Below are positions 1,775 to 10,090 of a stretch of 64,000 bases of DNA, piece after piece. How positions within the stretch are numbered: position 1 is the stretch's first letter; each line of letters opens with the position of its first letter. Source of the stretch: Escherichia phage vB_EcoM-ZQ3; sequence record MW630116.1; one strand, 5' to 3'. Both the position numbers and the translations under genes were made by a program. Below the pieces are notes generated by a model that worked only from the letters and a program-made list of their open reading frames with translations, made no database searches and was not told the origin of the DNA.

Positions 1775-2953
1775 ATGAGTACAGTTTTTAACACACAACA
1801 AGTCGATGTTTTGAATGAACCAATGTTCTTTGGTTCTGGTCTTGGCCTCGCACGTTATGATATTCAGCGACATAAAGTTTTTGAAGAACTTATTGAAAAG
1901 CAATTGTCGTTTTTCTGGCGCCCAGAAGAGGTAAACTTGATGTTGGACTCTGCGCAGTTCAATAAGCTTCCTCAGTTCCAACAGGACATCTTTACAAACA
2001 ATCTTAAGTATCAATCATTATTAGATTCTATCCAAGGCAGGGCCCCATCTGCGGTACTTATGGCACTGATTTCCGACCCTTCATTAGATACGTGGGTTGC
2101 AACATGGACATTCAGTGAAACTATTCACTCTCGTTCGTACACTCATATTATGCGAAATCTTTATACCGATCCATCTAAGGTATTTGATGAAATTGTATTA
2201 GACGAAGCAATCATGAAACGAGCTGAATCAATAGGTAAATATTACGATGATGTTCTGGTTAAAACTCGTTATTGGGAAAACGCTAAAGCCGATATCGAAT
2301 ACCAAAAAGAAATTAATGCAGACGAAGACGTTATTGAAGATGCTATTGAGCATGAGACATATTGGAAGCGTGAGCTAATGAAATCTCTTTATCTTTGCCT
2401 TCATGTAATTAACGCCTTAGAAGCTATTCGTTTTTACGTATCATTTGCATGTACTTTCAACTTCCATAAAAATATGGAAATTATGGAAGGTAATGCAAAG
2501 ATTATGAAGTTCATTGCTCGTGACGAACAACTCCATCTCAAGGGTACTCAGTACATTATCCGTCAACTTCAATCTGGTACTGACGGTGATGAGTGGGTTC
2601 AAATTGCTAAAGAATGTGAACAAGAAGCAGTTGACATTTTTATGGAAGTAAATAGTCAAGAGAAGGAATGGGCTGCACACCTCTTTAAAGATGGTACATG
2701 TCCAGGTATCAATACGCAGAGTATGTGTGCTTTTGTTGATTACTTGACTGTGTCTCGTATGAAACAGTGTGGTTTGCCATGTCCAATTACTGATGCTCCG
2801 ACCAAGCATCCGTATCCTTGGATTCGTGAATATCTGAACTCTGATTTAGTTCAAGCAGCTCCTCAGGAAGTTGAAATCAGTTCTTATCTTGTCGCACAAA
2901 TTGATAATGATGTAGACCAAAATGTAATCAATTCATACAAAAAATATTTCTAA
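1775..2953 (+). CDS. nrdB: ribonucleotide reductase small subunit NrdB, uninterrupted (no intron)
   Basis: 392 aa (T4 NrdB ~388 aa); di-iron/radical helices (HSRSYTHI, ALEAIRFYVSF, ARDEQLHL); continuous reading frame. Confidence 0.9.
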   Translation: MSTVFNTQQVDVLNEPMFFGSGLGLARYDIQRHKVFEELIEKQLSFFWRPEEVNLMLDSAQFNKLPQFQQDIFTNNLKYQSLLDSIQGRAPSAVLMALISDPSLDTWVATWTFSETIHSRSYTHIMRNLYTDPSKVFDEIVLDEAIMKRAESIGKYYDDVLVKTRYWENAKADIEYQKEINADEDVIEDAIEHETYWKRELMKSLYLCLHVINALEAIRFYVSFACTFNFHKNMEIMEGNAKIMKFIARDEQLHLKGTQYIIRQLQSGTDGDEWVQIAKECEQEAVDIFMEVNSQEKEWAAHLFKDGTCPGINTQSMCAFVDYLTVSRMKQCGLPCPITDAPTKHPYPWIREYLNSDLVQAAPQEVEISSYLVAQIDNDVDQNVINSYKKYF

Positions 2954-2954
2954 G

Positions 2955-2979
2955 GACGGGACTTCGGTCCCACTTTATT
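2955..2979 (+). terminator. hairpin GGGAC-UUCG-GUCCC followed by U-rich tract after nrdB
   Basis: perfect 5-bp GC stem with UUCG tetraloop then ACTTTATT. Confidence 0.5.
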
Positions 2980-3390
2980 ATGAAAGATATCGCCGCCGAA
3001 TATTCCTTTATTAAATATACAGAATTGGAGCTATTAGAAGATGCAACAATTAAAACAGTTGATGTCCCTAATAAGAAAAATGTCATATATGCTATTGCTA
3101 TAGATGACGAACTTGTGTATATTGGTAAAACCAAGAATTTAAAGAAACGCATTAACTATTATCGAACAGCCATAAATCGAAAAGACCAGACTTCAGATTC
3201 AAGAAAATCACTTATGATTTTGGATGCCTTAATGCAAGGCAAAAAGGTTGAATTCTGGGCCCGCCAATGTTTTGACCTTTCAGTCACCAACGAACTTGGT
3301 TCAATGACCATCGCAACAATGGACCTTGAAGAACCACTTTTTATCAAAAAGTTCAACCCGCCTTGGAATATCCAACATAAGAAAAAGTAG
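2980..3390 (+). CDS. denA: endonuclease II (GIY-YIG family)
   Basis: 136 aa, same length as T4 DenA; GIY-YIG-like segment VIYAIAIDDELVYIGKTKNLKKRINYY; located between nrdB and rnlA as in T4. Confidence 0.8.
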   Translation: MKDIAAEYSFIKYTELELLEDATIKTVDVPNKKNVIYAIAIDDELVYIGKTKNLKKRINYYRTAINRKDQTSDSRKSLMILDALMQGKKVEFWARQCFDLSVTNELGSMTIATMDLEEPLFIKKFNPPWNIQHKKK

Positions 3391-3419
3391 TTTACATACC
3401 ACAAGGATTGTGGTACAAT
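3390..3419 (+). promoter_or_regulatory. T4-type early promoter
   Basis: GTTTACA (-35), 18-nt spacer, TG-extended TACAAT (-10), ~30 nt upstream of rnlA. Confidence 0.7.
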
Positions 3420-3437
3420 TTAAAAAAAACTAACTGA

Positions 3438-4571
<1,134 letters not shown>

Positions 4572-6337: not shown

Positions 6338-7419
<1,082 letters not shown>

Positions 7420-7420
<1 letters not shown>

Positions 7421-8101: not shown

Positions 8102-8131
8102 GTTTACAACATGGTGGAGTTGTGATACTAT
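8102..8131 (+). promoter_or_regulatory. T4-type early promoter
   Basis: GTTTAC, 18-nt spacer, TGTGATACTAT. Confidence 0.7.
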
Positions 8132-8159: not shown

Positions 8160-8396
8160 ATGCTAAGTGAAAACCCAATTACAGTACACGAATTTCAGAT
8201 TAAAGTAAAAGAATTTGCTCAAGCACTCATCAATAAAGTGTCTGAACGTTTCCAAGATGCAACATTACGAGTTATTCAAGAATCTCCACGTTCTTTTCTC
8301 ATAATCGTTAATCCTAAAGATGGTGACCAAATTACTAATCTTAAATTAGGCAGTGATGGTCTTGTTGAAGCAACTCGAGTATATGGAACACTATAA
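8160..8396 (+). CDS. hypothetical protein
   Basis: 78 aa ORF with SD GAGGAAA. Confidence 0.45.
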   Translation: MLSENPITVHEFQIKVKEFAQALINKVSERFQDATLRVIQESPRSFLIIVNPKDGDQITNLKLGSDGLVEATRVYGTL

Positions 8397-8516
8397 TGAG
8401 AGCTATCTCATTACTATCGTGAATGGTCATAAATCTGAGCACTACCAACTTAGCCTGTCTAATCCGGTTAAAGGTATTGTTGAATCAGAATCTGTTTATA
8501 TCTCCTAAGGATTGTT

Positions 8517-9509
8517 ATGTTACCTGTCATCAGAAAACTTATTTCTCCAAAAGAACTGGCTGAGATTATTCCTTTGTCGGAAGCTTACGCATCACAAGTG
8601 GCTTCTCATCGCGAACAAGTTAATTCGATTATGAACGGTGAAGACCCACGCAAACTTATTGTTGTAGGTCCTTGTTCAATTCATGACCCTATTGCTGCTG
8701 TTGAATACGGCAAACGTCTGGCTGAACTTCAAACTCGTCTTCCTAATGTTCTGTTAGTGATGCGCGTTTATTTTGAAAAGCCTCGAACTACCGTAGGTTG
8801 GAAAGGTCTTGTAAATGATCCATATCTTGACGGAAGTTTTGATATGAACCACGGTCTTATAGTTGCACGAACATTGTGTCGTAAACTTCTACGTATGGGA
8901 CTTCCATTAGCAACTGAAGTATTAGACCCATTCACGATTAAGTATCTTTCTGGTATTTTCTCATGGGTTGCTATTGGCGCCCGTACGACTGAAAGTCAGA
9001 CACATCGTGAAATTGCTTCAGGTCTACCGATGTGCGTAGGCTTCAAGAACGCAACCAATGGTTCTATTAAAGTAGCTACAGACGCGATGTATAGTGCCGC
9101 CTGGCCTCATCGGTATATGGGTATGGACGTCGATGGTACTGTAGGCATTGTTGAAGCTGAAGGTAATCAGAATACGCATATCGTATTGCGTGGCGGGACT
9201 AACGGCCCGAACTATCATTCTTCTGATATTCAAGAAGCTTCTAACAAAGCAAGTGCATTAGGTCTGAATCATTATGTAATGGTTGACTGTAGCCATGCAA
9301 ACGCTGATGGGTATTATAGCAATCAAATTGGTATTGGTAAAAATTTAGCAGCTAATGATTTGGTCAAAGGAATTATGATAGAATCATTCCTACATGAAGG
9401 AAATCAAAAAATTTCTGATAATATGTCCTATGGCGTTTCCGTTACCGATGCGTGCATCGGTTGGGAACAAACTAAAGAGCTGTTAACTTATATTAATAAG
9501 GTTCAATAA
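8517..9509 (+). CDS. 3-deoxy-D-arabino-heptulosonate-7-phosphate (DAHP) synthase, class I (AroG/AroF/AroH-like)
   Basis: 330 aa; family signatures GPCSIHD, VMRVYFEKPRTTVGWKGL, WVAIGARTTESQTHRE, HIVLRGG, IESFLHEGNQ, TDACIGWE, corresponding to the metal-ligand Cys/His/Glu/Asp of E. coli AroG; SD TAAGGA; stop overlaps cd start. Confidence 0.85.
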   Translation: MLPVIRKLISPKELAEIIPLSEAYASQVASHREQVNSIMNGEDPRKLIVVGPCSIHDPIAAVEYGKRLAELQTRLPNVLLVMRVYFEKPRTTVGWKGLVNDPYLDGSFDMNHGLIVARTLCRKLLRMGLPLATEVLDPFTIKYLSGIFSWVAIGARTTESQTHREIASGLPMCVGFKNATNGSIKVATDAMYSAAWPHRYMGMDVDGTVGIVEAEGNQNTHIVLRGGTNGPNYHSSDIQEASNKASALGLNHYVMVDCSHANADGYYSNQIGIGKNLAANDLVKGIMIESFLHEGNQKISDNMSYGVSVTDACIGWEQTKELLTYINKVQ

Positions 9510-10090
9510 TGAAAGCTAGCACATATCTTCAAATTGCTTATTTGATTTCTCAAGAATCAAAATGTTGTTCATGGAAAGTTGGTGCCGTCATTGAAAAAGA
9601 TGGACGCATTATCTCTACTGGATATAATGGCTCACCCGCAGGTGGCGTTAACTGTTGTGAACATGCATCCGAAAATGGTTGGTTGAAGAATAAACCAAGC
9701 CCGGTCATCGTTGCTGGACATAAAGAAGGCACTACAGCATTTGGACGGGCAGATAATTTTGTTTTGGCTAAAGAACATCGGGCCGCTCATAGTGCATGGT
9801 CTGCCAATAACGAAATCCATGCGGAACTGAATGCAATTTTGTTTGCAGCTCGTAAAGGTAATTCTATTGAAGGTGCTACGTTATATACTACGCTTTCTCC
9901 ATGTCCTGATTGCACTAAAGCTATTACGCAGTCAGGTATTAAAAAGGTTGTATATGCAGAATTATATGACCGATCTCCTGAAAATTGGGCAGACATTCTT
10001 AAACAAGCTGGTATTGAAGTAATTCAGTACTCTCGTAATAATCTTCGTTCTCTGAATTGGGAACAAATCCGAAACTTTTGTGGTGAATAA
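9509..10090 (+). CDS. cd: dCMP deaminase
   Basis: 193 aa = T4 Cd length; zinc-binding deaminase motifs HAELNAI and PCPDC. Confidence 0.9.
   Translation: MKASTYLQIAYLISQESKCCSWKVGAVIEKDGRIISTGYNGSPAGGVNCCEHASENGWLKNKPSPVIVAGHKEGTTAFGRADNFVLAKEHRAAHSAWSANNEIHAELNAILFAARKGNSIEGATLYTTLSPCPDCTKAITQSGIKKVVYAELYDRSPENWADILKQAGIEVIQYSRNNLRSLNWEQIRNFCGE

Follow-up and report, generated by a model that had tools for sequence, protein, structure and literature searches.

A DAHP synthase gene beside cd in Escherichia phage vB_EcoM-ZQ3 carries clade-wide replacements at predicted feedback-inhibition positions

The sequence record of Escherichia phage vB_EcoM-ZQ3 (MW630116.1) supplied the 64,000-nucleotide stretch of Mosigvirus DNA analysed here, referred to throughout as the window. 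One of its loci has the gene order pseT, homologues of cd.3 and cd.2, a small open reading frame (ORF) of 41 amino acids, a gene for 3-deoxy-D-arabino-heptulosonic acid 7-phosphate (DAHP) synthase, or DAHPS, cd and gene 31. The DAHPS gene, the subject of this report, encodes the first enzyme of the shikimate route to the aromatic amino acids and is listed among the ORFs of the window at positions 8517–9509 of the plus strand with an ATG start and 330 codons, and no earlier in-frame start lies between the upstream stop and the ATG at 8517. It is 100% identical at the nucleotide level to the gene of Shigella phage SSE1 (Mosigvirus JS09), whose product (QBZ71100.1) is annotated as ‘phospho-2-dehydro-3-deoxyheptonate aldolase’. 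As a first-pass annotation of the window had stated, the gene lies in the variable stretch between pseT and cd, where T4 has cd.1–cd.5 only, with cd.1 at the corresponding spot and no DAHPS.

Profile searches place the protein firmly in the DAHPS family. It matches Pfam DAHP_synth_1 (PF00793) with E=1.8e-74 (250.5 bits, cutoff 25.5), and it passes both the NCBIfam aroFGH equivalog TIGR00034 (426.8 bits, cutoff 173.2) and the subfamily model PRK12755 (454.1, cutoff 343), while its scores for the AroG and AroH equivalogs NF006723 and NF009396 stay below cutoff (364.4 vs 568 and 384.3 vs 463, respectively). The top sequence match in the PDB is the Tyr-sensitive AroF of E. coli (E=4e-104), and alignment with the isozymes of strain MG1655 gave 51% identity to AroF, 48% to AroG and 45% to AroH; AroF, and not AroG as in the earlier label ‘AroG-like’, is the nearer relative. 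An AlphaFold2 (AF2) model built on 51 sequences has a mean predicted local distance difference test score (pLDDT) of 91.9 and superimposes on AroG and on the Neisseria meningitidis enzyme with template modelling (TM) scores of 0.94–0.96 and root-mean-square deviations (rmsd) of 1.4–1.6 Å (TM 0.96 and 1.4 Å for E. coli AroG, entries 8e0u/1kfl). The model is a (β/α)8 barrel with N-terminal helices and a β6a/β6b hairpin formed by strands 198–203 and 209–214.

Residue conservation was assessed in a sample of 25 proteins of the phage clade and 98 cellular homologues. The motifs GPCSIHD, HIVLRGG, ESFLHEGNQ and TDACIGWE, singled out in the first-pass annotation, are all present in the ORF, and the candidate metal ligands C53, H260, E289 and D311 are invariant in all phage and cellular sequences. 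These correspond to Cys61, His268, Glu302 and Asp326, which we take to be the metal ligands of AroG (PDB 1QR7); in the open-access full-text literature, no paper was found that lists all four. By this assignment the Cys, Glu and Asp had been placed correctly at the outset, but the histidine had not: the ligand would be H260 of the DCSHAN segment (AroG H268) and not H221 of HIVLRGG (AroG H230), an error harmless to the conclusion about competence because both histidines are invariant. The residues for phosphoenolpyruvate (PEP) and erythrose 4-phosphate (E4P), R83, K88-P89-R90-T91 (KPRT), G154-A155-R156, K177 and R225, are likewise kept in 25/25 phage and 98/98 cellular sequences. Profiles, fold model and invariant catalytic residues agree in pointing to a complete and apparently competent class I DAHPS, as first proposed.

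The difference in length from AroG is distributed differently from the early description, which attributed a shortfall of about 20 residues to 8 at the N-terminus and 10 at the C-terminus. The N-terminal 8 are indeed lacking, but the C-terminus is only about 5 residues short, the remainder being made up by 5 internal residues (AroG 289–293) and a few gaps of 1–2 residues. Deletions specific to the phage clade lie at AroG E86 and at AroG 289–293. C-terminal truncation was considered as a hallmark of the phage enzymes and dropped, since C-terminal length varies just as widely among the cellular homologues.

The distinguishing feature of the phage enzymes lies at the positions that control feedback inhibition in their cellular counterparts. 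We scanned the alignment, using no structure, for positions with conservation of 96% or more among the phage proteins and of 90% or more among the cellular ones, but with different residues in the two groups. Only 6 of 330 positions are divergently conserved in this way, and five of them (AroG P150, Q151, D155, S180 and F209) fall within the nine cell-conserved sites named in the literature as inhibitor contacts or as positions of feedback-resistant mutations (hypergeometric p=3.7e-6). These five pocket residues are replaced in 24–25 of the 25 phage sequences and are 92–98% conserved in the 98 cellular ones. When Phe or Tyr is bound to AroG, its main chain is held by Gln151/152 and Ser180/181, and a salt bridge of Asp155 stabilises the inhibitor site; the P150L mutation confers full feedback resistance, and S180F and F209A/S also confer resistance (PMC9529685). 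The N-terminus is altered as well: only 8–12 residues precede the column of AroG P19 in 25/25 phage proteins, against at least 16 in 98/98 cellular ones, so that the D6-D7-L8 motif of AroG is missing, and with it the equivalents of AroG 1–8 and any (D/E/Q/N)-(N/D)-(L/V/I) motif. Asp6 and Asp7 form part of the Phe site in 1KFL, and D6G-D7A and similar variants of AroG are Phe-resistant (PMC6520568); in AroF, deletion of Ile11 is a classical feedback-resistant allele (PMC10729320). The idea of a deregulated enzyme, originally put forward on the short N-terminus, is strengthened by the five replaced pocket positions, which make a loss of normal feedback control more plausible. As in AroF, the phage enzymes have Gly at the position of AroG S211, which we assume sets Tyr versus Phe specificity, and on this ground their ancestor was probably a Tyr-type enzyme. 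Among the cellular homologues, two (P0091 and P0096) show a third pocket signature, QPMAAG...P...H instead of DPxxPQ...S...F, and may represent another differently regulated subgroup.

Several lines of evidence indicate that the gene is a long-standing resident of phage genomes. The G+C content at third codon positions (GC3) is 0.29, compared with a mean of 0.286 (standard deviation 0.05) for 50 long ORFs of the window and with 0.50–0.57 for E. coli aroF, aroG and aroH, in agreement with the A/T-rich third positions remarked on initially. A search of 5.8 billion proteins found the nearest cellular proteins to be only 50–55% identical to the phage DAHPS, and these belonged to various Planctomycetota, Kiritimatiellota and Gammaproteobacteria. 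Neighbour joining of 123 sequences placed all 25 phage proteins in a single group in 100/100 bootstraps, with pairwise identities within the clade of 53–65%. Between genera, the ratio of nonsynonymous to synonymous substitution rates (dN/dS) is 0.14–0.24, similar to that of neighbouring cd, although these values are only an upper-level indication because dS is saturated there (1.2–2.0); the least saturated pair, PEi26 and Entb_45 (dS 0.62), gives 0.16. Phage-like GC3, monophyly, distance from cellular proteins and low dN/dS together bear out the description of an ameliorated resident gene. Recent capture from the host, considered separately, was rejected on the GC3, the 45–51% identity to the E. 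coli isozymes and the monophyly of the clade.

The genomic position has been kept along with the gene. The order pseT, small ORFs, DAHPS, 0–2 small ORFs, cd and gene 31 is shared by five genera, namely Mosigvirus, Kanagawavirus (PEi26, Entb_45), Marfavirus (F48), Winklervirus (X20) and Bragavirus (PM2), and it recurs on a T4-like contig from a metagenome, where the DAHPS is a basal member of the clade. Across six phages, the pairwise identities of DAHPS and cd are correlated (r=0.76). In the most divergent clade member (P0022, on metagenomic T4-like contigs L014/L015), which keeps Pro150, cd does not adjoin the gene; its neighbours are a Zeta_toxin-like ORF (a faint match) and DUF2828/DUF7788.

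Table 1. Features of the DAHPS locus and positions of the remodelled residues (nucleotide positions refer to the window, residue numbers to the phage protein)
Feature	Position	Strand	Evidence or remark
Early-promoter-like site TTTACA-17-TG-a-TACTAT, cd.3/cd.2 gap	8103..8131	+	Homology with T4 Pe133295
cd.2 homologue, 78 aa, DUF7320	8160..8396	+	Pfam PF24005 E=1.5e-35; phrog_1504; T4 cd.2 at the same place
41-aa ORF, function unknown	8383..8508	+	phrog_15876 E=5e-32; hypothetical protein in SSE1 annotation
Left copy of 13-nt imperfect direct repeat, ATAATGAGAGCTA	8393..8405		RB69 alignment breaks at cassette edge
Shine-Dalgarno AAGGA	8507..8511	+	Read from sequence; 5 nt 5' of DAHPS ATG
Type I-alpha DAHP synthase, 330 aa	8517..9509	+	Pfam, NCBIfam, alignment, AF2 model
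Right copy of direct repeat, ATAATGAAAGCTA	9506..9518		Spans DAHPS stop and cd start
cd, dCMP deaminase, 193 aa	9509..10090	+	Pfam dCMP_cyt_deam_1 E=1.5e-26; SSE1 annotation
Remodelled position, AroG P150 to I	I141		
Remodelled position, AroG Q151 to K	K142		
Remodelled position, AroG D155 to G	G146		
Remodelled position, AroG S180 to P	P171		
Remodelled position, AroG F209 to Y	Y200		
Remodelled position, AroG T223 to A	A214		

The locus is predicted to be read early in infection (Table 1). The whole intergenic stretch between cd.3 and cd.2 aligns almost base for base with the corresponding gap of T4, where early promoter Pe133295 is annotated in the T4 record, and the early promoter initially proposed here is upheld by this alignment. 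In a consensus scan, the count of sigma-70-like sites in the region was not above that of shuffled sequences, so the promoter call is one of homology with T4 alone. No terminator-like site was found on the plus strand 3' of the promoter. A transcript reading cd.2, the 41-aa ORF, DAHPS and cd probably starts at 8103–8131, and early transcription of DAHPS together with cd is likely, given the T4 promoter homology and the lack of a plus-strand terminator-like site. The best sigma-70-like match of the region lies antisense within the DAHPS gene (9313–9341 on the minus strand, TTTACC-17-TG-TATAAT, 10/12).

Translational coupling to cd, also suggested in the first-pass annotation, holds for the window in one respect only. 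The DAHPS stop TAA (9507–9509) and the cd start ATG (9509–9511) do overlap by 1 base (TAATG), and cd has a Shine-Dalgarno-like AAGG of its own 8–11 nt 5' of its start. The junction varies among genera, however, with the two genes abutting, lying 2 nt apart or separated by 1–2 ORFs (ORFs intervene in Winklervirus and Bragavirus), so coupling is not a conserved trait.

Comparison with RB69 defines the edges of a DAHPS cassette. RB69 has no DAHPS gene and its cd.2 abuts cd; the segment missing there measures 1113 bp, comprises the DAHPS gene and most of the 41-aa ORF, and is bounded by the 13-nt repeats, of which RB69 holds a single copy, ATAATGAAAGCTA (positions 7240–7260 of RB69 extract L012), and no cassette. 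The cassette is a clean presence/absence indel within the genus, most simply explained by a deletion in the RB69 line. The repeats contain the start codon context of cd. The 41-aa ORF (phrog_15876), the greater part of which lies within the segment absent from RB69, was considered as a partial duplication of cd.2: it weakly matches the C-terminal portion of phrog_1504, the cd.2 family (E=1.5e-4), but a BLASTP comparison of the ORF with the window's own cd.2 gave no alignment. The ORF may be a scar of the insertion of the cassette. Farther upstream, a 4-nt deletion relative to SSE1 in the run ACTAAAAAGAAAGAAAG divides pseT (polynucleotide kinase/phosphatase, 6525–7420) into two ORFs, one of 58 aa with the P-loop and one of 237 aa with the phosphatase, the break lying near 6685–6690. 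The deletion, absent from all 175 phage records matching this region, represents either a frameshift private to this phage or an error in sequencing.

The gene is widespread and already catalogued. A megablast search with the DAHPS gene returned 145 phage records, 139 of them at least 95% identical over most of the length, and tblastn with the protein found homologues in 212 records from phages of Escherichia, Shigella, Klebsiella, Enterobacter, Edwardsiella, Serratia, Erwinia, Proteus and other hosts. Most matching records annotate it as DAHP synthase or aroF, and in PHROGs it matches a family of its own, phrog_5045 (E=2.3e-181, residues 1–330 on profile positions 8–337 of 341), filed under ‘moron, auxiliary metabolic gene and host takeover’. 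The novelty implied at first was therefore overestimated: the gene is a known phage auxiliary metabolic gene (AMG), annotated as DAHPS in well over 100 phage records. A DAHPS domain is named in passing in the genome papers of phage phiC120 (PMC8022965) and of Klebsiella phage KLB31, the latter offering an AMG hypothesis (PMC11845039). Among Mosigvirus-level records with a near-identical cd, about 139 of 150 (~93%) also carry the DAHPS gene. The gene is rather uniform in these records, with 91 copies at 99% identity or more and 48 at 95–99%, against 0 at 99% or more, 123 at 95–99% and 27 at 90–95% for the adjacent cd; the greater uniformity may come from a recent recombinational spread of the cassette or from tighter constraint.

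We think it fairly probable, though well short of assured, that the gene supplies an early-made, constitutively active DAHPS that would push carbon into chorismate and be insensitive to the aromatic amino acids. A T4-like phage lineage would have acquired it once, in the distant past, and purifying selection would then have held it at a constant location between pseT and cd. The T4-type early promoter would provide for its early expression during infection. The enzyme has the same catalytic machinery as cellular AroF, AroG and AroH. It lacks the N-terminal segment by which one subunit closes its neighbour's inhibitor pocket, and with the main inhibitor contacts replaced its feedback site may have been dismantled or rebuilt. 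Such an enzyme would ignore Tyr, Phe and Trp and thereby sustain the flow of carbon into the shikimate pathway, keeping shikimate and chorismate moving when the host isozymes would be feedback-inhibited and no longer synthesised. The carbon could end up in aromatic amino acids needed for virion protein, and possibly in p-aminobenzoate (pABA) and folate for phage thymidylate and hydroxymethyl-dCMP synthesis, whose enzymes are encoded nearby; the nearness to cd is no evidence for this second role, as the slot is simply variable. Activity, insensitivity and benefit to the phage are what we infer here, set beside the observed identity, conservation, residue pattern, synteny and promoter homology.

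Several observations weigh against this interpretation. RB69, about 7% of the Mosigvirus-level records and T4 manage without the gene, so any benefit must be conditional. The downstream shikimate enzymes may or may not have spare capacity in infected cells. A phage-directed search of the full-text literature found no experimental work on any phage DAHPS. One basal clade member keeps Pro150, F209Y is a conservative substitution, and the regulatory β6a/β6b hairpin and N-terminal helices are retained in the AF2 model. The pocket is also strongly conserved within the phage clade, with 11 of 12 literature positions at least 96% conserved against a background of 41% (p=4e-4), which fits a site that is still doing something rather than a dead one.

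This conservation leaves room for a further, rather unlikely variant, in which the allosteric pocket has been rebuilt and fixed across at least five genera, either locking the enzyme on or answering a non-aromatic, infection-specific signal. In its regulatory form, which we regard as unlikely, the remodelled pocket (DPFTIK...G...P...Y...A) would accommodate another effector, or be filled by a side chain of the protein itself such as K142, and place the enzyme under a control relevant to infection. The near-invariance of the replacement residues in a clade of only 53–65% identity speaks for such retuning, as does the hairpin in the model, but there is no candidate ligand, the loss of the N-terminal lid takes away part of the pocket, and structural demands at the dimer interface, or a locked active state, could account for the conservation equally well. 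It is more doubtful again that the phage simply carries an ordinary extra copy, a still Tyr-sensitive enzyme of the AroF type raising DAHPS dosage after host transcription has been shut off. AroF is the closest E. coli isozyme, the Gly at the AroG S211 position is that of the Tyr-type enzymes and P138, equivalent to AroF P148, is kept; yet the Gln and Ser that touch the inhibitor, the Pro and the salt-bridge Asp are changed, and the N-terminal segment is absent, almost without exception across the phage clade, while cellular homologues conserve the same residues.

A change of chemistry is very improbable. The first-pass annotation had raised a different phosphosugar product. In this rival reading the enzyme would join PEP to another aldose phosphate such as arabinose 5-phosphate, in the manner of 3-deoxy-D-manno-octulosonate 8-phosphate (KDO8P) synthase, to yield a sugar for DNA or envelope modification. 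DAHPS and KDO8P synthase do share one Pfam family, and Mosigviruses such as RB69 arabinosylate hydroxymethylcytosine (hmC). The KPRT motif and all E4P and PEP residues are nonetheless of the DAHPS type in all 25 phage proteins, where KdsA presumably has a KANRS-type motif, and the NCBIfam matches include DAHPS models only, with the equivalog cutoff passed and no KDO8P synthase model among them; on the motif and the missing model match, KDO8P-synthase-like chemistry is rejected. A link to arabinosyl-hmC DNA was also discarded, as RB69 itself lacks the gene and the reaction would not make arabinose. It is equally improbable that the protein acts non-catalytically, as a decoy for host DAHPS or a poison of its subunits, or that the gene is a passenger without function, recently transferred from a host; nothing specific speaks for either beyond the dispensability of the gene in RB69 and T4, and against them stand the invariance of all catalytic residues, a dN/dS of about 0.15–0.2 over deep divergence, the phage-like GC3 and the modest identity to the E. 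coli isozymes.

Work on phage genes that redirect the host's metabolism has dealt extensively with nucleotides and photosynthesis but hardly with amino-acid biosynthesis in enteric T4-like phages. DAHPS carriers infect Klebsiella, Serratia, Proteus, Edwardsiella and Erwinia, and many are phage-therapy candidates. If the enzyme is constitutively active, the phage would override the one point at which the shikimate pathway is controlled, which would offer a simple, testable case of metabolic takeover, a possible medium-dependent determinant of fitness and a natural scaffold for feedback-resistant DAHPS. If the pocket has been rebuilt and held, it would be a dedicated takeover device for entry into the shikimate pathway and a ready-made resistant enzyme for metabolic engineering; if the enzyme is ordinarily regulated, the gene would be merely a correctly annotated auxiliary gene.

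Set against known systems, the phage enzyme combines conserved catalysis with a predicted change of control. The PHROG 5045 proteins of phages SSE1, JS09, HX01, ST0, F2, PEi26, vB_Kpn_F48, X20 and PM2 are the same gene, in the same position by cd; the gene as an object is thus already known, and the apparent clade-wide remodelling of the feedback site, undescribed in the literature searched, is the new point. Compared with E. coli AroF, AroG and AroH, the phage protein has the same fold, identical metal, PEP and E4P residues and the hairpin, but it is without the first ~8 residues (including AroG Asp6/Asp7, and Asn8 in AroF) and carries I-K where AroG has P-Q, along with the replacements D155G, S180P, F209Y and T223A and the 5-residue deletion at AroG 289–293. 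A DAHP_synth_1 protein of Aeromonas phage HJ05, a 79-kb non-T4 phage, likewise carries Pro in place of S180 and lacks the Gln of Q151. At 38% identity, with 387 aa, a long N-terminal extension and another genomic context, it represents an independent lineage (its ORF, at 2899–4062 of extract L010, is annotated as hypothetical), and its pocket changes suggest that phages may have lost the feedback site convergently. A parallel is provided by the engineered resistant alleles (aroG P150L, S180F, F209A/S and D6G-D7A; aroF delta-Ile11): the phage changes fall at the same positions and segments, but they differ in kind (P150I, Q151K, S180P, F209Y, with D6/D7 deleted instead of substituted) and occur together in one enzyme.

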